Assembly (NCBI GenBank): GCA_017435255.1
Contig: JAFSFI010000008.1
Coordinates: forward strand, 1,765 to 65,764
Direction: 5' to 3'
DNA from: Bacilli bacterium
GTDB lineage: Bacteria; Bacillota_I; Bacilli_A; RF39; UBA660
DNA: 64,000 nt
Part shown: positions 23,004-61,046 of the stretch, piece by piece
How positions within the stretch are numbered: the stretch's first letter is position 1
Layout of the letters: each line of letters begins with the position of its first letter
Notes under the pieces: generated by a model
The model's input: only the letters and a program-made list of their open reading frames with translations
The model's database searches: none
Told to the model about the DNA's origin: nothing
Made by a program: the position numbers and the translations under genes

Positions 23004-23016
23004 GTGGTGATTGATA

Positions 23017-25809
23017 ATGCAAAAGAATAATAAGAAAAGAAATTTGTTAATAGTTATTGTTATTATAATAATGTTATTATTATCGTTAGCAGGTGCATTA
23101 CTATTTGTACATGGATCTAAACAAAATAAAAATACGATAACAATAAATGAAAAACATTTATCAAAAATAGACGAGAATATATATAATCTAACAGAGAAGG
23201 TTGATTCTTTAAATGGCGATATTATTACAAAAGAAGAAATTGTTGATGTTTCTATTAATGTAAAAAGTGGTAACTTAAATATTTTAGATAAAAAATTGAA
23301 TCAATCTAAAAAATGGCAACTCGATGAAATAAGTTTTGTTCCTGGTACTAATGAAGTTTGCATTACTGCAAAGTTAGAAAAAAATAACTTGGAACAATGC
23401 TTTACGATCAATAACTATAATGAAGAAAACATAGGTGATATAGATGCTGGTGATTCAGATAATGATGGATTAAAAAATTATGAAGAAATAATTTTTGGTA
23501 CAGATATTACAAAAAAAGACACTGATGAAGATGGGCTAAGTGATTATGAAGAAATATATGTTATTTTAACTAGTCCGCTAGAACAGGATACCGACAAAGA
23601 TGGAATAGAGGATGCTTCTGAGGATTTTGATAAAGACCAACTAATTAATAGTGAAGAATTAAAAAAGAAGACATCTGTACATATGAGTGATACGGATGAA
23701 GATGGATTGAACGATTATGATGAATTAAACGAATTCAATACTAATCCAACACAAAAAGATACAGATGGAGATGGATTAAGGGATTATATAGAAATATATG
23801 AAACTAATACTGACCCAAACAAAAAAGATCAAAAAATAGATACAGCAAAAACTTCAGATGATGGAATAGCAAGCGTAGAGGTTAAAGATTTAAATGGTAA
23901 TGCGTATGAAACTTTATCTATTACCAAAGCTAATGTTTCACTTTTAAATTCAAATATTGCTGGTTATATTTTAGATGCTTATGAATTTAACGTTGAGCAA
24001 TCCAAAATAGATGCAGTAATCAGCTTTGATTTAAATTCTATTGATTTGGATGAAAATGCTAATCCTACTATTTATTATTACAATGAAGAAACACAAATGT
24101 TAGAAGAACTTGAAACAACAATTGAAGACGGAAAGGCATATGCCCATGTTAATCACTTCTCTAAATATATATTAATTGATAAAACAGAACATGATGCTAT
24201 GTGGGCTGAAGATCTTAGTTATTTGATTGGAGACAATTATAATAATTTAGATGTTGTTTTTGTTATTGATATATCAGCTAGTATGGATACGAATGATCCT
24301 ACTGATTCAAGAAAACAAATGATGAGTAACTTTATTTCTTCGTTAAAAGATGAGGATCGAGCAGGAGTGGTTTTATTTAGAAGAACATCACAAATTTTAA
24401 ATAATGGATTTTCTAATAGCGAAGGTGATAAGAAAAAATTGATTACAGATGTTTTTAATATATCTAACGACAATGGACGAGAGCTGGATTCTGGCACTAA
24501 TGGTTCACAGGGATTATATACAGCAATTAATATGTTTAAAGATAAAGAAGAAGCAAAAAGATATATAATATTTTTAACTGATGGATTGGATACCCATCAT
24601 GCTTATAAATATGAGGAAATATATAGATTGGCTAATGAAAAACACATAACAATATTAACTATAGGATTAGGATGGGAAGCAGATAGTAATTTGTTAAGTG
24701 AAATAGCAGAAAATACAGGTGGTAAATTTTATTATTCTGAAAATTCTGAAGATTTATATGAAAATTATGTTGGAATTTTAGAAGAAACAGAAGATTATAG
24801 AACCGATAGTAATAATGATGGTATTTCTGATTATTTTACTAAATTGATCTGTGACGGGACTATTACAACAGCAACTGGGCTTAATCCTTTCGAAGGGCTT
24901 TCTTATAATGAAATGCAGAAAAATGATGACCAAGATAAAGATGGATTGAAGAATGGTGAAGAAGTAAAGGTAGTCGTATTAGATAACAAAATATATTTGA
25001 AATATATTTCGGATCCTGTATTTATTGATAGTGATGGTGATGGTTTAGATGATACATATGATGCCAATCCGAATAAAAAATTTGATTCTAGATTTTCTGT
25101 GGTTGATGGACTGGACTTTAAACCTGAAACGCCTACAGAGGATAACCTGGCAAGGGAGTCAAATTCATCATATAACAAAGAATCTGGAAATTGTGTGGGA
25201 TGTAAGACAAGGGCCCAAGCAATGGTTGCAAGTTTTGGAACGATGCCGGCAGCATTAGCTTTACAACATTTTTTAGACAACGATGGAACTACATATAATT
25301 TTAATAATGATTGGGGATTACTTGAGACATATAGAGGAAAAGAGTATTTGGCTAAAAACACGAACGTTTTAATGCAGGTTGCAGAAGAAACTGTTAAAAA
25401 CGGTGACACACTTACTTTTGCAACCAATAAAGAATTAACAGGCACTAAATTTTCAGAACATTTGGACGATTTGGCAGATATTGGTTGGTGGTATGCTGTG
25501 GGACACACTAGAGCAACCATGGTAGGTCAAATTACACAAGAGAATGGAATGTATGAAATGACGTTGTATTATAATATTCACGATTTTTACGATTGGAATA
25601 AAGATGGGAGCTATTTTAATGGAGGTTTCGGCTTACTTGTTAGTGATGCGGAGATGTATAAACTTCACACTTTGGGAATTGCAAAACAATATCGCATAGA
25701 TATAAACTATAAAATGATTGTTAGATGGCAAAAAGGGGATCGTTATTATTTGGATAAAATAAAACTTTGGCAAACTCCTGCCACAATGAGTGTTGAAAGA
25801 ATAAATTGA
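23017..25809 (+). CDS. Membrane-anchored protein with thrombospondin type-3-like Ca-binding repeats, a vWA domain and an unknown C-terminal domain
   Basis: ATG at 23017, 7 nt after AGGTGGTGA. Eight DxDxDGxxDxxE repeats (e.g. DTDEDGLSDYEE). vWA MIDAS DVVFVIDISASMD, and IIFLTDGLD. Confidence 0.7.
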   Translation: MQKNNKKRNLLIVIVIIIMLLLSLAGALLFVHGSKQNKNTITINEKHLSKIDENIYNLTEKVDSLNGDIITKEEIVDVSINVKSGNLNILDKKLNQSKKWQLDEISFVPGTNEVCITAKLEKNNLEQCFTINNYNEENIGDIDAGDSDNDGLKNYEEIIFGTDITKKDTDEDGLSDYEEIYVILTSPLEQDTDKDGIEDASEDFDKDQLINSEELKKKTSVHMSDTDEDGLNDYDELNEFNTNPTQKDTDGDGLRDYIEIYETNTDPNKKDQKIDTAKTSDDGIASVEVKDLNGNAYETLSITKANVSLLNSNIAGYILDAYEFNVEQSKIDAVISFDLNSIDLDENANPTIYYYNEETQMLEELETTIEDGKAYAHVNHFSKYILIDKTEHDAMWAEDLSYLIGDNYNNLDVVFVIDISASMDTNDPTDSRKQMMSNFISSLKDEDRAGVVLFRRTSQILNNGFSNSEGDKKKLITDVFNISNDNGRELDSGTNGSQGLYTAINMFKDKEEAKRYIIFLTDGLDTHHAYKYEEIYRLANEKHITILTIGLGWEADSNLLSEIAENTGGKFYYSENSEDLYENYVGILEETEDYRTDSNNDGISDYFTKLICDGTITTATGLNPFEGLSYNEMQKNDDQDKDGLKNGEEVKVVVLDNKIYLKYISDPVFIDSDGDGLDDTYDANPNKKFDSRFSVVDGLDFKPETPTEDNLARESNSSYNKESGNCVGCKTRAQAMVASFGTMPAALALQHFLDNDGTTYNFNNDWGLLETYRGKEYLAKNTNVLMQVAEETVKNGDTLTFATNKELTGTKFSEHLDDLADIGWWYAVGHTRATMVGQITQENGMYEMTLYYNIHDFYDWNKDGSYFNGGFGLLVSDAEMYKLHTLGIAKQYRIDINYKMIVRWQKGDRYYLDKIKLWQTPATMSVERIN

Positions 25810-32608: not shown

Positions 32609-32638
32609 AGACACTCTTTTTTGGGTGTCTTTATTTTT
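32609..32638 (+). terminator. Rho-independent terminator after rpsO
   Basis: AGACAC...GTGTCT hairpin followed by a T-rich run. Confidence 0.6.
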
Positions 32639-32653
32639 GAGAGGGGGATTAAA

Positions 32654-32974
32654 ATGGATACAAATAGAGTATATTTTGGTAGTGTATATCAGGTTGATTC
32701 TATAGGTACTAGTTATTATGATCATACTGTTCATTTGAATTATGTGAAACCAGCGCTTGTATTTGTGAAAGCTAATATATTTGGTAGACAATATATGTTA
32801 GATTTAAATACAAAAGAAAAATATCCATTCAGGACAGGAAGAATTCCTAAAGTTGGAACTTTACATGTATCAACAAGATCACTTAGATCATTTAATGAAG
32901 TTACTAAAAACGAAAGAGAAGATTTACCAAGGAAAATGATTAAACAAATGGGAAATAAATACTTATCAAAATAG
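32654..32974 (+). CDS. Hypothetical 106-aa basic protein between rpsO and pnp
   Basis: ATG at 32654 follows GAGGGGG. The ORF-track start at 32621 lies inside the rpsO terminator and is rejected. No recognised domain. Confidence 0.5.
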   Translation: MDTNRVYFGSVYQVDSIGTSYYDHTVHLNYVKPALVFVKANIFGRQYMLDLNTKEKYPFRTGRIPKVGTLHVSTRSLRSFNEVTKNEREDLPRKMIKQMGNKYLSK

Positions 32975-32989: not shown

Positions 32990-35122
32990 ATGGAAAAGAA
33001 AATATTTGAATTAGATTTTAGAGGAAGAAAAATAGTTGTAGAACATGGTGAAGTAGCTAAACAAGCTCATGGTGCAGTACTAGTTAGATATGGGGACACA
33101 GTAATTTTATCAACTGCTGTAGTTAGTAAGAATGCTAATATTTTATCTGATTTCTTCCCGTTAATGGTTCTTTATCAAGAAAAATTATATTCTGTAGGTA
33201 AAATACCTGGTGGATTTATTAAAAGAGAAGGTAGACCAACTGATGCTGCAACACTTGCTGCTAGAATGATTGATAGACCAATGCGCCCATTGTTTCCAGA
33301 AGGTTTTAGAAATGAAGTGCAAATAGTAAATACAGTATTATCTGTTGAACAAGATAATTCACCAGAAATTACTGCATTATTAGGTTCTAGTATTGCTACT
33401 TGTATTAGTAAAATACCTTTTGATGGACCTATAGCAGGTGTAAAAGTTGGTAGAGTTGATGGAGAATTTGTAATCAACCCAACTCCTGAGCAAGTGGAGA
33501 AATCTGATATAGATTTAACAGTAGCAGGTACTAAGTATGCTATTAACATGGTTGAATCTAGTGCTAAACAAGTGTCAGAAGATGATATGTTAGAAGCATT
33601 AATGTTTGGCCATGAAGCTATTAAAGAATTAGTGGCATTCCAAGAAGAGATTATTGAAGCAATCGGTGAAGAGAAAATGGAATATGAAACATTAGAAATC
33701 ACTGATGAGTTTAAAGAAGAAATCTCTAATCTTTGTAAAGAAGAATTGGATAAAGCTCTTCGTATTAAAGATAAACTTGAAAAATATGCAGCTATCGACA
33801 AAGTTAAAGAAGAAGTTGTTACTAAATATGAGGCTGAGAATAGTGAATTAAAAGATAAAGAATTAAATGAATTATTAACTAAAGTAAAACTAGTATTAGA
33901 AGAAATAGAATATGAGTTATTTAGAAGAATAGTTGTTAAAGAAAAAACTAGAGCAGATGGAAGAAGTATGACTGAGATTCGTCCGTTATCAACTGATATA
34001 GATATTTTACCTAGAACTCATGGTTCTGCATTGTTTACTCGCGGGCAAACTCAAAGTTTATCTATTACTACATTGGGAGCATTAGGTGAACATCAAATAT
34101 TAGATGGATTATCTCTAGAAGATGAAAAAAGATTTATGCTTCATTATAACTTCCCACAATTTTCAGTTGGTGAAACTGGAAGATATGGTTCTCCTGGAAG
34201 ACGTGAAATTGGTCATGGAGCATTAGGTGAAAAAGCATTATTACAAGTTATTCCAAGTGAAGATGAATTCCCATATACTATTCGTGTAGTTAGTGAAATT
34301 TTAGAAAGTAATGGTTCATCAAGTCAAGCATCAATTTGTGCTGGATGTATGTCTCTAATGGCAGCTGGTGTTCCAATTAAAGCTCCAGTAGCTGGTATTG
34401 CTATGGGACTTATTACTGATGGTGATGATTATACTATTTTAACTGATATTCAAGGTATGGAAGATCACCTAGGAGATATGGATTTTAAAGTAGCTGGTAC
34501 AAGAGATGGTATTTGTGCATTACAAATGGATATTAAGATTAAAGGTATTACTAAACAAATCTTAAAAGAAGCTTTAGCGCAAGCGAAAGATGCAAGAATG
34601 GAAATACTTGATGTTATTCAAAAACAAATTGCTGAACCAAGAAAAGAAGTTAGTAAATATGCTCCAAAAACATTAACATTTATGATTAAACCAGAAAAAA
34701 TTAAAGATGTTATTGGTAAAGGTGGAGAAATGATTACTAAAATCATTTGTGAAGCAAGTAATGTTACTAGTGTAAGTGATATTAATGCTGTTAAAGTTGA
34801 TTTAGAAGATGATGGAAGAGTAATTATTTATCATTCTGATCAAGAAATTATCGATAAGACTGCTGAAATGATTAAGAATATCGTAAGAGAAGTTGAAGAA
34901 GGAAAAATTTATACAGCTAAAGTAGTTGCAATTGAAGAGTTTGGATGTTTTGTACAAGTTTGGCCTGGATGTGAAGGGTTGGTACATATTTCAAAACTAT
35001 CAAAAGAAAGAGTTGAAAAAACAGAAGATGTTGTAAAACTTGGTGACGAAATTATTGTTAAAGCAATAGGTACTGATAAAAAAGGTAGACTTAACTTCTC
35101 AAGAAAAGACGCAATGAATTAA
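32990..35122 (+). CDS. pnp: Polyribonucleotide nucleotidyltransferase (PNPase)
   Basis: Two RNase PH domains (REGRPTD..., [22 protein letters not shown]), a KH domain ([12 protein letters not shown]) and an S1 domain ([20 protein letters not shown]). Confidence 0.97.
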
Positions 35123-35147
35123 GAGAAAGAAATTTCTCTTTTTTTTA
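35122..35147 (+). terminator. Rho-independent terminator after pnp
   Basis: AGAGAAA-GAAA-TTTCTCT hairpin followed by T8. Confidence 0.7.
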
Positions 35148-35174
35148 TAAAATGTAAAATATTAGTTTGTTCGA

Positions 35175-35203
35175 TTGTTCTAGAAGTTTACTTATAGTAT
35201 AAT
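35175..35203 (+). promoter_or_regulatory. Sigma-A-type promoter of the small structured transcript
   Basis: TTGTTC, 17-nt spacer, TATAAT. The predicted TSS near 35210 coincides with the first base of the long 5'-3' helix. Confidence 0.5.
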
Positions 35204-35209
35204 TATTCT

Positions 35210-35445
35210 AGGAACATTTAATAGTTGGGTGGTTGCCAAATCTCTTGCAGGGAGGTGGTGATACAATGAACAAGAAAGATTTTTTAATCTTATCTCAAGT
35301 AATTATTATCTTCCTTTTAATATTATTGCTATATACAGTTTTAATATAAAAAGAAAACCACCTAACTCATCTATGAATTAGGTGGAACCCAAAATATACG
35401 GCAACATCCAACATGGACATATTAGATGTTCCTTTTTTATTTTAT
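35210..35445 (+). ncRNA. Highly structured ~235-nt transcript carrying a 27-codon ORF (type I toxin mRNA candidate)
   Basis: 5' 35211-35237 pairs with 3' 35400-35432 (13+5+6 bp, one G-U). The SD AGGUGGU (35253-59) is complementary to ACCACCU (35357-63). That element can instead pair with UUAGGUGG (35378-85). Ends in a T-run. Confidence 0.55.
35266..35349 (+). CDS. 27-aa hydrophobic peptide (candidate type I toxin)
   Basis: Not in the ORF track. GGAGGTGG SD 7 nt upstream of the ATG. MNKKDFLILSQVIIIFLLILLLYTVLI has a charged N-terminus followed by a single TM helix. Confidence 0.45.
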   Translation: MNKKDFLILSQVIIIFLLILLLYTVLI

Positions 35446-35488
35446 GCAAGTTTCCTTGACAAATTCATAGTAACATATTTTTTATTGT

Positions 35489-35517
35489 TTGTCAAAATTC
35501 TAACTTTATAGTATAAT
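35489..35517 (+). promoter_or_regulatory. Sigma-A-type promoter of smc
   Basis: TTGTCA, 17-nt spacer, TATAAT. Confidence 0.5.
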
Positions 35518-35542
35518 TTTTATAGTAGATAGGGTGATAAGT

Positions 35543-38488
35543 ATGTACTTGAAAGAAATAAGCGCATCTGGATTTAAGTCTTTTGCAGAAAAATTAACTA
35601 TAAGTCTAGATGGTAAAACTACTTGTATTGTTGGTCCTAATGGATCTGGTAAAAGTAATATAGTAGATGCAGTAAGATGGGTATTAGGTGAACAATCAGT
35701 TAAATCACTTCGTGGTGATAGTGGCATGACAGATGTCATTTTTTCTGGTTCAAAATCAAGAAATCCACTTAATGTAGCTAGTGTATCTTTAACATTTGAT
35801 AATAGTGATAATTATTTAAAGATACCTTATAATGAAGTTTCTATCAAAAGAAGAGTTTATCGTACAGGAGAAAATGAATATTACTTAAATGGTGATAAAT
35901 GTAGGCTTAAAGATATAACCGATTTATTTATTGATAGCGGAATTGGAAAAGACGCATTTAACATTATTTCTCAAGGAGATATTAGTAAAATATTATCTAA
36001 TTCTCCTGAAGAAAGACGTACTATATTTGAAAGTGCAGCAGGAGTATTAAAATATAAAAAGAGAAAAGAAGAAGCTATTAGGAAGCTTGATAGAACTCAT
36101 AATAATTTGGATAGAGTAAATGATATTATTGGTGAATTAGAAGTACAAGTAGAACCTTTAAAAGAACAAAGTAAAAAAGCTTTAGAGTATTTAGAGAATA
36201 AAGAAAAACTTGAAAATATTGAAGTAGCGCTAATCGCTTATGAAATAGAAGAGATGAATTTCCAATATGAAGAAGTTAAGAAAAACGTAGAGGAATTAAA
36301 TAATAAAATACTTAATTTAAATGTAAAAGGCAACAATGATGATACCTTGTTTATTGAAAGTAAAAATGATCTAGGTAAATTAAACGTTGAACTTAATGAA
36401 TTTAATAATAGATTATTGGAACTTACTAAGAAAGAAGAAAAACTTAATGGTGAAATGAATATTCTTAAAGAACGTAGTAAATATGATGCATCTAATAGTA
36501 AAGTTCATGAAAACATTTCTAAATTAAAAGAAGATAAATTAAAGTTAGAAAATGATTTATATTTATTAAATAAAGATATAGAAGATTTATTAAATGAAGT
36601 AAATAATAATAGAGACGAAGTTAGTAAAATAGAACTTGAAGTTTCTAATTTAAAGAAAAGAAAAGATTCTAGTTTAAGTGATTTAGATAATAAAAATAGA
36701 GAACTTACAAATGTAAGCCATAAGATCGAAGTGTTAAATAATTATATTTCATCCGGTGGAAGTCTATCAAACAGTGTTAAATCTGTTTTAAATAATCCTA
36801 GACTTTCTGGCATTCACGATGTTTTAGGTAATTTGATAGAGGTAGATGAAAAATATACTAAAGCATTAGAAGTAGCTCTCTTAGCTAGTAAACAATATAT
36901 TGTTGTAGATGATGAAAAAAGTGCTAAAAGTGCGATTAATTATTTAAAAGATAATAACTTAGGTAGGGCAACATTCTTTCCTATTGCAGTTATAAAACCT
37001 AGAGGAATAGATCACGAAACATTAAGTTTATTAAGTAATGAAGATGGATTTATTGATATATTTTCAAATGTTGTTACATATAGTGACAAATATTATGGAG
37101 TTGTTACAAATCAACTTGGAAATGTAATACTAGTAAATAATATTGATACTGCTAATAGAGTTAGTAAAAGAATAAACCAAAGATATAAGATAGTAACACT
37201 TGATGGTGATGTAGTAAATGTTGGTGGTTCTATTACTGGTGGTAGCTTACATGTAGGTAAGAGTATCATTAGTGAGAAAAAAGAATTAGAATATTTAAAC
37301 AGACATAAAAAAGAATTAGAAGTAGTAATTACAGATATTAATAAAGATATAGTTAGATTTAATGATGAAATTTCTAAATTAGAAGAAGTATTATTTTCTA
37401 ATAAGTCTAAACTAGTAGAAATTGAAGAAATATTACACAATAAAGAAAATAATAACAGTATTCTTCGTAGTAGTCTTGAAAATACAGATAATGAACTTAA
37501 TAGCTTAGGTCATGTTGTTGATTCATCTCTTTCTAAAGAAGAAGAAAGATTAATGAATGAATACTATAGTGTTAATCGTGAGAAAGAGGAGTTAATTAAA
37601 GACATTAACAATAAAGCTAAAGAAAAAGATAAATTATCTATGAAAATAGATGAAATGGAAGCAATTAATAAAATGAATAATTCCTTGCTTTATAAAACTG
37701 AAAAAGAGTTAAAAGAACAAGAAATTTTATTAGGTAAATTAGATGTTAAATTGGATAATCATTTAAATATATTAAGAGAAGATTATGAATTAACTTTTGA
37801 AAAGGCTAAAGATAATTATGTTTTAGAATTAGAACCTAGTGAGGCTAGAACTAATGTTAACATTTATAAAAATAATATTAAACGTCTTGGAATGGTAAAC
37901 TTAGCATCAATTGAAGACTATAAAAGAGTGTCGGAAAGATATGAATTCCTAACTTCTCAAAAGAATGATTTATTAAATGCAAAAGAGACTTTATTAGAAA
38001 TAATTGAAGAGATGGATTCTGTTATGAAGGAAGAATTCTTAACTACATTTGAAAAAATAGAAATAGAGTTTAAAAAAGTCTTTAAAGAATTATTCCATGG
38101 TGGAACAGCAACTCTTAAATTAACAGATCCTAATAATATATTAGAAACAGGAATAGAAATTATTGCATCACCGCCTGGTAAGAAACTTGCATCAATTTCT
38201 CTTTTATCAGGAGGAGAAAAAACACTTACTGCAATTAGTTTAATATTTGCAATTCTAAATGTTAGGGTAGTACCATTCTGCTTGTTTGATGAAGTAGAAG
38301 CAGCACTTGACGAGGCAAATGTAGATAACTTTGGTAAATATTTAAACAATTATAGTAATAAAACTCAGTTCTTATTAATTACGCATAAGAAAAAAACTAT
38401 GGAGTATGCTAATACTTTATATGGAATTACTATGCAAGAGTCTGGAGTTAGTAAACTAGTAAGTGTAAAACTAGATAAAATAGATTAA
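35543..38488 (+). CDS. smc: Chromosome segregation protein SMC
   Basis: MYLKEISASGFKSF, Walker A GPNGSGKSN, long coiled coils, the hinge (LGRATFFPI), signature LSGGEKTLTA and Walker B FCLFDEVEAALD. Confidence 0.96.
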   Translation: MYLKEISASGFKSFAEKLTISLDGKTTCIVGPNGSGKSNIVDAVRWVLGEQSVKSLRGDSGMTDVIFSGSKSRNPLNVASVSLTFDNSDNYLKIPYNEVSIKRRVYRTGENEYYLNGDKCRLKDITDLFIDSGIGKDAFNIISQGDISKILSNSPEERRTIFESAAGVLKYKKRKEEAIRKLDRTHNNLDRVNDIIGELEVQVEPLKEQSKKALEYLENKEKLENIEVALIAYEIEEMNFQYEEVKKNVEELNNKILNLNVKGNNDDTLFIESKNDLGKLNVELNEFNNRLLELTKKEEKLNGEMNILKERSKYDASNSKVHENISKLKEDKLKLENDLYLLNKDIEDLLNEVNNNRDEVSKIELEVSNLKKRKDSSLSDLDNKNRELTNVSHKIEVLNNYISSGGSLSNSVKSVLNNPRLSGIHDVLGNLIEVDEKYTKALEVALLASKQYIVVDDEKSAKSAINYLKDNNLGRATFFPIAVIKPRGIDHETLSLLSNEDGFIDIFSNVVTYSDKYYGVVTNQLGNVILVNNIDTANRVSKRINQRYKIVTLDGDVVNVGGSITGGSLHVGKSIISEKKELEYLNRHKKELEVVITDINKDIVRFNDEISKLEEVLFSNKSKLVEIEEILHNKENNNSILRSSLENTDNELNSLGHVVDSSLSKEEERLMNEYYSVNREKEELIKDINNKAKEKDKLSMKIDEMEAINKMNNSLLYKTEKELKEQEILLGKLDVKLDNHLNILREDYELTFEKAKDNYVLELEPSEARTNVNIYKNNIKRLGMVNLASIEDYKRVSERYEFLTSQKNDLLNAKETLLEIIEEMDSVMKEEFLTTFEKIEIEFKKVFKELFHGGTATLKLTDPNNILETGIEIIASPPGKKLASISLLSGGEKTLTAISLIFAILNVRVVPFCLFDEVEAALDEANVDNFGKYLNNYSNKTQFLLITHKKKTMEYANTLYGITMQESGVSKLVSVKLDKID

Positions 38489-38518: not shown

Positions 38519-38604
38519 TGTAAAGTGATTAAAAAAAACAAATTTACTACTATTATTGATCGACATTGTTTGATAGAATATAAATTAAGATAGGAGTGTT
38601 TATA

Positions 38605-39378
38605 ATGGAATTTGTAAAGAAGAATATTAAGTGGATTGCTTTAGGAGGTTTGGGTGTTGCTTTTTTAGGTCTGTTTTTACCTTATGCAACAGTAACTGCA
38701 GAACTTTTTGGTACTCCAATTTTTAGCCAATCTATAACTTATGTAAAACATGATGGAATATTTGTTTTATTAGCTATTGTTGCTTGTGGAGTATTATTAT
38801 TCTTAAAGAAAGAATTGTTTTCTTTAATACCGTTAGGACTAGGAGCAGGTATTACTGTGTATAGTGCATTTAATGTAGGTAAAGTAATGGGTGAAACTCA
38901 AGTAGAAGGAGTTAAAACTAGTTTCTCAATAGGGTTTTATATGTTGATTATAGGACTAGTTGTAGCTGCCGCTGCAATTTGCTACAGTGAGTTTGTTCTA
39001 AAGAAAAAAGGAATAGGAATTGGAGTTAATAACCAGGGTTATGCACAACCAAATTATAATCAGGGATATCAACCTTATAACTATAATCAACCAACTCAAC
39101 CAATCGAACAACCTAGTTATAATCAACCATTTGTTGGTGGACCAGTAAACGATGTACAACAACCTATGGGAATGCCAGCAAACAATGATACGTACAATCA
39201 AACATCTGTTGCACAGAATCCAGTTCAATCGTTTGGTCAAGTGCAACCAGCAATGAACAATATGCAACAACCTGTTCAAGACTTTTCTAATCCAGCAGTT
39301 GTTAATTGTCCACAATGTGGAACAGCATTGAACGCGGGTACTCAATTCTGCCATCAATGCGGAAGTAAAGTAAATTAG
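38605..39378 (+). CDS. Multi-pass membrane protein with a Q/N/P/Y-rich linker and a C-terminal zinc ribbon (paralog 1)
   Basis: About four TM segments. Low-complexity NQGYAQPNYNQGYQPYNYNQPTQP. C-terminal CPQCGTALNAGTQFCHQCGSKVN. Confidence 0.6.
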   Translation: MEFVKKNIKWIALGGLGVAFLGLFLPYATVTAELFGTPIFSQSITYVKHDGIFVLLAIVACGVLLFLKKELFSLIPLGLGAGITVYSAFNVGKVMGETQVEGVKTSFSIGFYMLIIGLVVAAAAICYSEFVLKKKGIGIGVNNQGYAQPNYNQGYQPYNYNQPTQPIEQPSYNQPFVGGPVNDVQQPMGMPANNDTYNQTSVAQNPVQSFGQVQPAMNNMQQPVQDFSNPAVVNCPQCGTALNAGTQFCHQCGSKVN

Positions 39379-39445: not shown

Positions 39446-40231
39446 ATGAATTCAGGTGTAAAACTGTTAGTGTTGTTGCTATGTGTAGTATCAATAGGTG
39501 GCTTGTTTTTACCACAGATGACAATTTCAAGTGAGTTTTCGGATGATAAAGAAAGTACTATATATATTCAGGTGGGTGAGGAAGCAGAAGACAAAGATCA
39601 AAGTATGGGAATAACAATTTTGGTTTTAATCGCTATTGCTGTATTTTTCTTGTGTATTGGTGCTAATGTTTTGTCATTGTTGGCTTTAACCGCAGGAGGA
39701 ACATTAGTTATCTATAACGCTGTTATATTAATTAAAGCGATGGATATATATAAAGAATATTCAGATTCTTTATCCGGTTTTATGGATATGAATTATGGTA
39801 TTGGCTTTTATATGTTACCAGCTGGGATATTAATTTCAATTATTATGATTTTGTTTAATTTGAATAATCAAAATGATGTTGGTTATGCTAGTGGAATTAG
39901 TTATAGTTCTTTAAGTTCGAGAACATCATATCAACCTAGTAGTTATAATCCGGAACCTCAACCAGTTGTGCAACCTAATTATAATCAATATTATGGGCAA
40001 TCTGCAGCTAACAGTAGTTATCAATCGATAGGAATGCAGAATAGTTCGGTGAACACTAACATATTTAATCAAGCGCCAGTTGCATCAAATGTGAACCAAT
40101 TTGATGCTGTTGTTGATAATGCTGGGCAAAATACATCAGTAACATCTAGTGCTATGAATTGTCCTCAATGTGGTTCATCGTTAAATAGTGGTATGCAATT
40201 CTGTAATAATTGCGGAACAAAAATCAATTAA
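39446..40231 (+). CDS. Multi-pass membrane protein with an S/Q/N/Y-rich linker and a C-terminal zinc ribbon (paralog 2)
   Basis: Same architecture as 38605..39378. C-terminal CPQCGSSLNSGMQFCNNCGTKIN. Confidence 0.6.
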   Translation: MNSGVKLLVLLLCVVSIGGLFLPQMTISSEFSDDKESTIYIQVGEEAEDKDQSMGITILVLIAIAVFFLCIGANVLSLLALTAGGTLVIYNAVILIKAMDIYKEYSDSLSGFMDMNYGIGFYMLPAGILISIIMILFNLNNQNDVGYASGISYSSLSSRTSYQPSSYNPEPQPVVQPNYNQYYGQSAANSSYQSIGMQNSSVNTNIFNQAPVASNVNQFDAVVDNAGQNTSVTSSAMNCPQCGSSLNSGMQFCNNCGTKIN

Positions 40232-60266: not shown

Positions 60267-60353
60267 GATTTTGCTTTGTGGGACTTATCTTGACAAAAAT
60301 AATCATTTTTGATAAAATATTTAACTGTCACGTGAAATAAGAGGTGTTAGAAG

Positions 60354-61046
60354 ATGTTTTATGATGAGGCAAAAGCCATAAAAGCGTGTGAAGAAGAACC
60401 TTCCCTGATATTTGAGCTTATCAGAGAAGAACATTTTGAACTAGTTGATTTTTTGTTAACTAAAGGAAAAGTAGATATTAATATATGTGATGAGCTTGGA
60501 AATAATGTTCTAGTGAGACTCCTTAAAAAAGGTCAATATGAACTGGTTCTAAAACATATGAAAAATAAAAAATGGGATGTTAACCATCAAAATAATGAAG
60601 GTAATACATTTGCTCATATCTTAGTACTTTATAACTATGTAAATGTACTAGAGATAATTAATGGTTTAAAGAAAAATAAAAACTTTATGCCAAATATAAA
60701 GAATAATAAAGGGGAGACCATTCTTGACAAATCTATTAACAATAATTACATTTATACAACAATTAAAATCCTTGAAGATAAGAGATTTAATGACATTGAT
60801 ATAGTTTCATTTAAAAATTTATATGATACATATATTAAAACTAATAATTATGGTAAATATACTAAATTAACTAATTTACAAATTATAATGGATAATTTAG
60901 AAGAAAAAACATTATTACCTAATATGAAAAAGTTAGTTAATATGGTAAAAGCTAATTATGATGTTATTAAAGAAGAGGTTATTCATAATAAAACAAATGA
61001 ACTTGATAATATAATTAGTAATGTATTATTAGAAAGTAGAGCATAA
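60354..61046 (+). CDS. Ankyrin-repeat protein
   Basis: Repeats of the G-N-T/N-hydrophobic-LH/A type: ELGNNVLVRLLKKGQYELVLKHM, NEGNTFAHILVLYNYVNVLEII, NKGETILDKSINNNYIYTTIKIL. Confidence 0.65.
   Translation: MFYDEAKAIKACEEEPSLIFELIREEHFELVDFLLTKGKVDINICDELGNNVLVRLLKKGQYELVLKHMKNKKWDVNHQNNEGNTFAHILVLYNYVNVLEIINGLKKNKNFMPNIKNNKGETILDKSINNNYIYTTIKILEDKRFNDIDIVSFKNLYDTYIKTNNYGKYTKLTNLQIIMDNLEEKTLLPNMKKLVNMVKANYDVIKEEVIHNKTNELDNIISNVLLESRA

Follow-up and report, generated by a model that had tools for sequence, protein, structure and literature searches.

Within the spacer that separates pnp from smc in an uncultured gut bacterium lies a compact locus that is probably a type I toxin-antitoxin-like module, the representative of a family without prior description. 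The parts from which this reading is assembled, a pair of complementary RNAs and a 27-residue membrane peptide, are very probably real, as judged from the sequence and its homologues; that together they constitute a true toxin-antitoxin pair is the interpretation we favor. In the computed models the locus carries the traits of type I systems: a hydrophobic peptide, a complementary antisense RNA from the same locus and a structured mRNA with an occluded Shine-Dalgarno (SD) sequence. The peptide (27 aa) is within the limit of fewer than 60 aa, and the short mRNA (~235 nt) within the range of 150-400 nt, that are usual for this class. A first-pass annotation of this DNA had already suggested a type I toxin-antitoxin-like locus; the tiny transmembrane peptide, the closing helix and buried SD of the mRNA and the idea of an antisense RNA survive our analysis, whereas the pairing that it drew between the SD and an ACCACCU element, and the antisense promoter that it proposed, do not. 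The type I systems treated in PMC8594479, PMC3834814 and PMC6733600 are those of cultured model organisms; the present locus would place a peptide and RNA family of ~78 clusters in uncultured, small-genome gut Bacilli.

The whole stretch of DNA analyzed, 64 kb long and called the window throughout, belongs to a low-GC organism whose PNPase is 78-81% identical to those of "Mycoplasma sp. CAG:877" and of MAGs labelled uncultured Bacilli/Tenericutes. The genes rpsO, pnp (32990-35122) and smc (35534-38488) are all on the + strand, and the module is contained within the 411-nt pnp-smc spacer, where it forms part of a larger insertion or deletion:

35140 to 35485, no strand assigned: the 338-bp indel carrying the whole module, delimited by alignment with the empty sites of L088 and L082

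The boundaries of this indel slide from 35140-35477 to 35148-35485 because the repeat TTTTTTAT is present at both ends; this 8-nt direct repeat flanks the 338 extra bases of the window. In the two relatives with an empty site the spacer is only 83 nt long and the T-run of the pnp terminator leads directly into ATTGTTTGTCAAA, the smc promoter. Both lack the module, yet they are close to the window: L088 has a PNPase that is 99% identical at the protein level and a pnp gene that is 92.9% identical at the DNA level, and for L082 these values are 97% and 91.6%. (The strain of the window is also that of L081 and L096.) At this site other relatives have inserts of a different kind, for example ~210 nt unrelated to the module in L089 (4640-4920) and ~570 nt in L083 (4640-5285) that encode a two-TM membrane ORF of 102/108 aa with its own terminator; in L004 and L005 a polysaccharide-deacetylase-like gene and other genes follow pnp. 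The spot behind the pnp terminator is a variable site in this clade, and its members differ in the cassette they carry there. The inverted repeats are located ~60 nt inward of the indel ends, and a MITE or small non-autonomous transposon was rejected as the identity of the insert: terminal inverted repeats are absent, although the direct repeat flanks the indel. A separate 20-nt direct repeat (18/20 identical; 35192-35211 and 35506-35525) covers the -10 regions of the element promoter and of the smc promoter, and the former is closer to the smc promoter than to the homologous promoters in L098 and L108, a likeness which could be the consequence of local recombination or of chance.

The coding part of the module is very small:

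35266 to 35349, + strand: ORF (ATG at 35266, TAA at 35347-35349) for the 27-aa peptide MNKKDFLILSQVIIIFLLILLLYTVLI, with relatives in ~78 protein clusters

The peptide has a charged head (MNKKD) and one predicted transmembrane helix, the mean Kyte-Doolittle hydropathy of residues 6-27 being 2.96. A search of 1.84 billion representatives, with the 38-aa TTG-extended ORF as query, gave 11 matches (E 8e-7 to 5e-4), and a subsequent profile search extended the family to 78 protein clusters, every member of which ends in a 27-residue peptide of the form M-x-KKD-[F/L]LI and then a hydrophobic tail. Gene calling registered these ORFs solely on account of start codons farther upstream that are in frame with the peptide across the 5' UTR, and their N-terminal parts are therefore translated conserved RNA, GTFN being the reading of GGAACATTTAAT and KGGDxM that of the SD; the 3' UTR of the read-through members is conserved too. 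A six-frame motif scan of ~1 Mb recovered only true members, each with a strong SD 5-10 nt upstream. Between the window and its distant homologue L002 the differences at the three codon positions number 12/8/17, the second position being the most conserved, as expected of a hydrophobic coding sequence.

That the peptide is not a recognized one, as had been remarked in the first-pass annotation, agrees with our searches of Pfam and NCBIfam: five family peptides (E <= 10) matched no toxin or small-peptide family and gave only three weak matches to unrelated models, and no model of the curated toxin families (Fst/RNAII, Hok, Ldr, Ibs, TisB and others) was matched by the peptide. At gathering score Rfam detected only three tRNAs in the whole window, and at E <= 10 the segment 35000-35700 gave chance-level matches only, with no type I antitoxin family (RatA, Sok, Sib, IstR or others) among them. 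The 38-aa ORF was not on record in an exact look-up, and a look-up of the family clusters returned no names or accessions. No paralogue of the peptide or module occurs within the 64-kb window, and blastn in its "distant" mode gave no match in phage and plasmid collections. Four patterns (structural, two peptide back-translations and the 5' end) each found nothing or one chance match in IMG/VR, and a pattern of SD, anti-SD and decoy found five chance matches and no homologues in the JGI metagenomes; since the ACCACCT motif lacks conservation, this last pattern was tailored too closely to the window. Our literature searches found no paper with the string KKDFLI and nothing relevant on type I toxin-antitoxin modules of Mollicutes. 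In four family members (P0167, P0170, P0172 and P0175) the called ORF fuses an unrelated protein N-terminus to the peptide, the partners being by eye L21, MurD, an XRE-type HTH protein and a GNAT acetyltransferase; these fusions could come from chimeric short contigs or from real recombination at the ATGxxxAAAAAAGAT motif.

At the DNA level the comparative RNA set consists of three distinct sequences, the window, L098 and L108, and the covariation described below rests on few events, which weakens the toxin-antitoxin case. L098 and L108 both retain the ORF together with the -10 box, the 5' end and the closing helix. The L108 copy directly follows a pnp terminator, in a genome whose PNPase is 78% identical to that of the window, and ten mutually identical loci of the P0141 type are found between an HTH_3 gene and tRNA-Met. 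The module is patchy in its occurrence: its three genomic contexts (pnp/smc, pnp/cotJ and HTH_3/tRNA-Met) have no conserved protein-coding neighbor, and it is missing from lineages with 92-93% identical pnp DNA. A comparison of the spacer, by blastn and nhmmer, with 80 pnp loci from species representatives of GTDB detected no copy downstream of pnp. A profile of the three sequences yielded one distant member, L002 (1079-1203), with the peptide MTKKDFLILVLLIIIILLVALLWKSLN; its UTRs are unrelated, but its RNA is again strongly folded (z = -4.20), with a long-range closure and a buried SD. This member is immediately upstream of an IS3-like transposase pair (1288-2507; 120 aa and 282 aa), and a terminator-like hairpin on its minus strand (1210-1195) abuts the stop codon, with no antisense promoter evident in that sequence, a point against the toxin-antitoxin reading. 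The ORF has exactly 27 codons in all four (window, L098, L108 and L002). Around the HTH_3/tRNA-Met copies, L098 and L101 were compared with L099, L100 and L102 over the stretch ~60-130 nt downstream of the element: the minus-strand tRNA-Met (1189-1265) is intact in L099, while L098 and L101 diverge inside tRNA-Met and continue with DnaB_C- and PAPS_reduct-like genes, which suggests that in these two a mobile element integrated into the tRNA gene.

The predicted plus-strand transcript is defined by the following features:

35175 to 35203, + strand: promoter of the peptide mRNA, with a weak -35 (TTGTTC, 35175-35180), 17 nt and the -10 TATAAT (35198-35203)
35210 to 35444, + strand: predicted toxin-like mRNA of ~235 nt, its 3' end approximate, from the fold and its shuffle z-score
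35210 to 35237, + strand: 5' arm of the closing helix, paired with 35400-35433
35400 to 35433, both strands: 3' arm of the closing helix in the + RNA and the bases of SL2 in the antisense RNA, from folds and pairing in homologues
35433 to 35446, + strand: U-run ending the + RNA, seen in the sequence and kept in homologues

The promoter is the one proposed in the first-pass annotation. It is missing from our consensus scan list because its -35 matches at only 3/6 positions, a weakness that counts against the toxin-antitoxin reading; in the window, L098 and L108 alike, TATAAT precedes the conserved AGGAACA by exactly 6 nt, so that both the -10 box and its spacing from the start are conserved, and in L098 the promoter (TTGTTA-17-TGaTATAAT) matches at 10/12. 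Folding of the + strand from 35211 to 35440 gave an MFE of -68.3 kcal/mol against -40.0 +/- 4.6 in dinucleotide shuffles (z = -6.16; 0/200 shuffles as good), and the homologous mRNAs, of like architecture, gave z = -5.98 (L098) and -5.33 (L108). The dominant element is a helix that pairs the two ends of the RNA and consists of 35210-23/35420-33 (14 bp), 35224-31/35405-12 (8 bp) and 35233-37/35400-04 (5 bp), with 2 G.U pairs, one bulge and an internal loop of 7 nt. Such a helix had been described earlier as 13+5+6 bp with one G-U; its existence is upheld but it proves to be longer, and the T-run that was said to follow it is indeed there and is conserved in homologues. All 66 of the 66 cells of its 22-bp core are paired in the window, L098 and L108. 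Among these three homologues wobble switches occur at four pairs and double changes at none; the changes are all of the wobble type because the 5' arm, AGGAACAUUUAAUA...GUUGGGUG, is invariant. Folding and covariation among relatives had been named as the check on the earlier model: the fold far exceeds its shuffles and each stem of the antisense RNA holds a compensatory pair, whereas the closing helix offers wobble switches only.

The SD and the start of the ORF are where the first-pass annotation had placed them, and in the predicted ensemble the SD is buried:

35250 to 35261, + strand: SD region GGGAGGTGGTGA, containing the SD GGGAGGTGG (35250-35258)
35303 to 35315, + strand: in-ORF anti-SD AUUAUUAUCUUCC, the predicted partner of the SD (pair probabilities 0.94-0.97)

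It is with this segment inside the ORF, kept in L098 and weaker in L108, that the SD pairs in the partition function, whereas in nascent or 3'-blocked forms it is buried instead by a 5'-UTR hairpin (35232-45/35249-62). The mean unpaired probability of the SD core, 0.003, equals the lowest value among 24 control genes, the long genes of the window with a clear SD, which range from 0.003 to 0.99 (median ~0.4; 3/24 at or below 0.012). The SD was buried in every fold computed, those with the 3' end removed or blocked included, and this counts against the toxin-antitoxin reading. The partner that had been suggested originally, an ACCACCU just behind the stop codon, was rejected as an anti-SD: the ACCACCT at 35357-63 is complementary to the AGGTGGT at 35253-59, but their pairing has an ensemble probability of ~0 and is kept in only 13/21 homologue cells. 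The alternative hairpin attributed to the same element (35358-85) is present, and its importance appears to lie on the other strand.

That strand carries a candidate antitoxin-like RNA with a promoter of its own:

35467 to 35495, - strand: antisense promoter TTGACA (35495-35490), 17 nt, TGtTACTAT (35475-35467), 10/12 with TG in the consensus scan
35346 to 35460, - strand: predicted antisense (antitoxin-like) RNA of ~115 nt, from folds and 87/90 paired cells
35458 to 35447, - strand: stem-loop SL1, with a GAAA loop, at the 5' end
35432 to 35400, - strand: stem-loop SL2
35385 to 35345, - strand: stem-loop SL3 plus U-run
35358 to 35385, both strands: hairpin H1, the SL3 terminator stem on the minus strand and a 3'-UTR hairpin on the plus strand

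The -10 of this promoter, TACTAT (35472-67), is preceded by TG, and the full arrangement TTGACA-N14-TGnTAnnnT occurs at 3 sites on both strands of the 64 kb, where 0.14 would be expected; another of these sites (60290-60318) is just upstream of an ORF starting at 60354. An extended -10 is found at the same minus-strand position in the window, L098 and L108 (TGTTACTAT, TGTTAAAAT and TGTTATGAT, respectively). The -35 of L098 and of L108 matches at only 3/6 positions, which counts against the toxin-antitoxin reading. The smc promoter (35489-35517; TTGTCA-17-TATAAT, 11/12) and the antisense promoter have one common palindromic -35, TTTGTCAAA, that is read both ways; since relatives with an empty site have this palindrome too, what came with the insert was only the antisense promoter's -10 half. 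A different sequence, TTGCAT-17-TCTAAT, had previously been put forward as a weak antisense promoter; it exists but was rejected, its -10 becoming TTCAAT in the homologues. The antisense RNA that it was to drive is thus retained in altered form, as a conserved predicted minus-strand RNA that overlaps the 3' UTR and starts at ~35460 from a different and much stronger promoter.

The terminator scan identified a 12-bp minus-strand stem (35385-58) followed by TTTTCTTTTT as the only terminator-like site in the region, and the U-run of SL3 reaches the stop codon. Across the three homologues each antisense stem has one compensatory pair (C-G to G-C in SL1, C-G to U-A through a U.G intermediate in SL2 and C-G to U-A in SL3) and the loops of SL1-SL3 are free to vary; RNAalifold recovered SL2 and SL3. 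The two larger hairpins have greater stability as minus-strand RNA, with -14.2 kcal/mol versus -6.0 kcal/mol on the plus strand for SL2 and -18.0 versus -13.4 kcal/mol for SL3/H1. The local hairpin equivalent to SL2 is paired in 36/36 cells on the minus strand and 30/36 on the plus strand. Positions that are C.A mismatches in plus-strand RNA become G.U pairs in minus-strand RNA, so that the hairpins under selection appear to be those of the minus strand. The SL3 stems of L098 and L108 contain one mismatch each and the terminator scan made no call for them, a further point against the toxin-antitoxin reading. Complementarity of the predicted antisense RNA to the mRNA is complete over ~99 nt of the 3' UTR, the 3' arm of the closing helix included.

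These predictions suggest how the module could work. The mRNA would lock itself by pairing its first 27 nt with the last 34 nt before the U-run, and its ribosome-binding site would be buried by the in-ORF CUUCC stretch or by the 5'-UTR hairpin. From the minus strand the strong extended -10 promoter would produce the ~115-nt RNA of three stem-loops whose terminator abuts the stop codon. First contact between the two RNAs may be made through complementary loops, that of SL3 with the H1 loop and that of SL2 with the closing helix's internal loop of 7 nt; the duplex could then grow to ~99 bp, displacing the mRNA's 5' end, which resembles the 5' arm of SL2 in sequence. The mRNA so freed would be open to RNase III and exonucleases, and the peptide would not be made. 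A bolder joint reading, which we hold only tentatively and consider rather improbable as a whole, is that of a widespread undescribed type I family in the RF39/"Mycoplasma sp. CAG" group and its spore-forming relatives, governed by a three-way competition and possibly subject to repeated homing. The mRNA 5' end, as a copy of the SL2 arm, would be a built-in "antitoxin mimic" that locks the mRNA 3' end and that the real antisense RNA would need to displace in order to trigger decay, and the cassette may home repeatedly to the T-runs of intrinsic terminators such as that of pnp.

The layout of the module matches that of the Gram-positive type I families, in which the antisense RNA is on the 3' side of the toxin mRNA (PMC8594479). 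With bsrG/SR4 and txpA/RatA of B. subtilis it shares convergent RNAs, a multi-stem-loop antisense RNA complementary to the 3' part of the mRNA, an antisense terminator loop that faces a complementary mRNA loop, a double-stranded SD and a small transmembrane peptide (PMC3834814, PMC8594479); in bsrG/SR4 that terminator loop contacts the mRNA loop and the SD is within a helix (PMC3834814). Unlike in those two systems, the overlap here stops at the stop codon whereas theirs enters the ORF, the mRNA has a 5'-3' closing helix of 22-27 bp, there is no Rfam antitoxin match, and the peptide is unrelated, with 27 aa versus 38 or 59 and no charged tail. The lack of the charged C-terminal tail of Fst, BsrG and TxpA counts against the toxin-antitoxin reading. 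In Fst/RNAII (par of pAD1) and SprA1/SprA1as, as here, the ORF is spared by the antisense RNA, whose overlap with the mRNA is limited to the 3' UTR (PMC8594479). Structure at the mRNA 5' end limits translation in both, as is predicted for the present locus; their repressing interaction is outside the overlap, unlike the one we propose. In par a single terminator is shared by both RNAs, whereas the present locus has two distinct hairpins, arranged criss-cross, no DRa/DRb-type direct-repeat pairing was identified and the peptide has no Fst Pfam match.

The Gram-negative systems hok/Sok and aapA/IsoA resemble the module in the 5'-3' long-distance interaction that closes the full-length mRNA and in their alternative anti-SD segments, several of which (5' UTR, in-ORF and 3') figure in the aapA3 model (PMC6733600). 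But in those systems the SD is covered by the long-distance 3' partner and it is the 5' region that the antisense RNA targets, whereas here the closing helix (35210-37/35400-33) excludes the SD, the antisense RNA targets the 3' arm and there is no leader ORF. Nor do the folds reproduce activation by 3' trimming in the style of aapA or hok, the SD staying paired with the 3' end removed or blocked. The ShoB and Ibs toxins are very short, with N-terminal charges and then an uninterrupted hydrophobic stretch to the C-terminus. The likeness to them is one of peptide architecture only; sequence similarity is not detectable, the host phylum is another and the antisense arrangement differs.

The main rival explanation is that the locus encodes a small membrane protein that does no harm, such as a regulator or accessory subunit of some membrane complex, with a cis-antisense RNA to adjust its expression; we regard this as unlikely but deserving of serious consideration. 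Many bacterial peptides of fewer than 50 aa with one transmembrane helix are not toxic, and the peptide, the structured mRNA and the antisense RNA fit a harmless product equally well; the missing charged C-terminal tail and the lack of tandem or multiple copies in the window even speak for it. However, the module is an isolated unit equipped with promoters and terminators of its own, has no conserved protein-coding neighbor in its three contexts and varies in presence or absence among close relatives, and the combination of extreme SD occlusion with a 5'-3' lock is typical of mRNAs with a product that is not to be made (PMC6733600).

The indel with its flanking 8-nt repeat, the other inserts that other strains carry at the site and a nucleotide-level conservation that runs through the UTRs might instead indicate a structured non-coding element or a MITE-like insertion relic in which the ORF is incidental and not translated. 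This is quite improbable, given an ORF of exactly 27 codons in all members with a strong SD 5-10 nt upstream each time, a second codon position that is the most conserved and a peptide that is kept in L002 despite unrelated UTRs; moreover, there are no terminal inverted repeats, the inverted repeats lying ~60 nt inside the indel ends. It is more doubtful still, to the point of being hardly credible, that the element is a cis-regulatory part of the pnp or smc units, such as a terminator/attenuator region or a PNPase-binding 3' element. Its position directly after the pnp terminator in two genomes with 78% identical PNPases is what such a role would predict, but in relatives without the element the pnp terminator is followed at once by the same smc promoter, smc has its own 11/12 promoter downstream of the element and the P0141-type copies are nowhere near pnp.

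If the locus is indeed a type I toxin-antitoxin module, its sequence already provides an explicit and testable design that comprises a promoter on each strand, a 5'-3' lock, multiple anti-SD segments and an antisense RNA of three hairpins; should the peptide not be toxic, it would still be a conserved 27-residue membrane peptide under what is predicted to be unusually tight RNA control. The variable spot at the pnp terminator is useful for strain typing and for studying the spread of such modules.

Three minor observations were made elsewhere in the window. Between rpsO and pnp there is a 117-aa ORF with no function assigned (32621-32974), at whose position most close relatives have an ORF of 99-131 aa. 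Two membrane proteins encoded side by side, paralogues of 260 and 261 aa (38596-39378 and 39446-40231), have Q/N/P-rich linkers and a C-terminal CPQCG...C..CG zinc-ribbon motif. Finally, a 932-aa protein (23011-25809), probably a large one of the cell surface, has numerous repeats of the calcium-binding type DTDxDGLxD together with a DxSxS motif like that of vWA.
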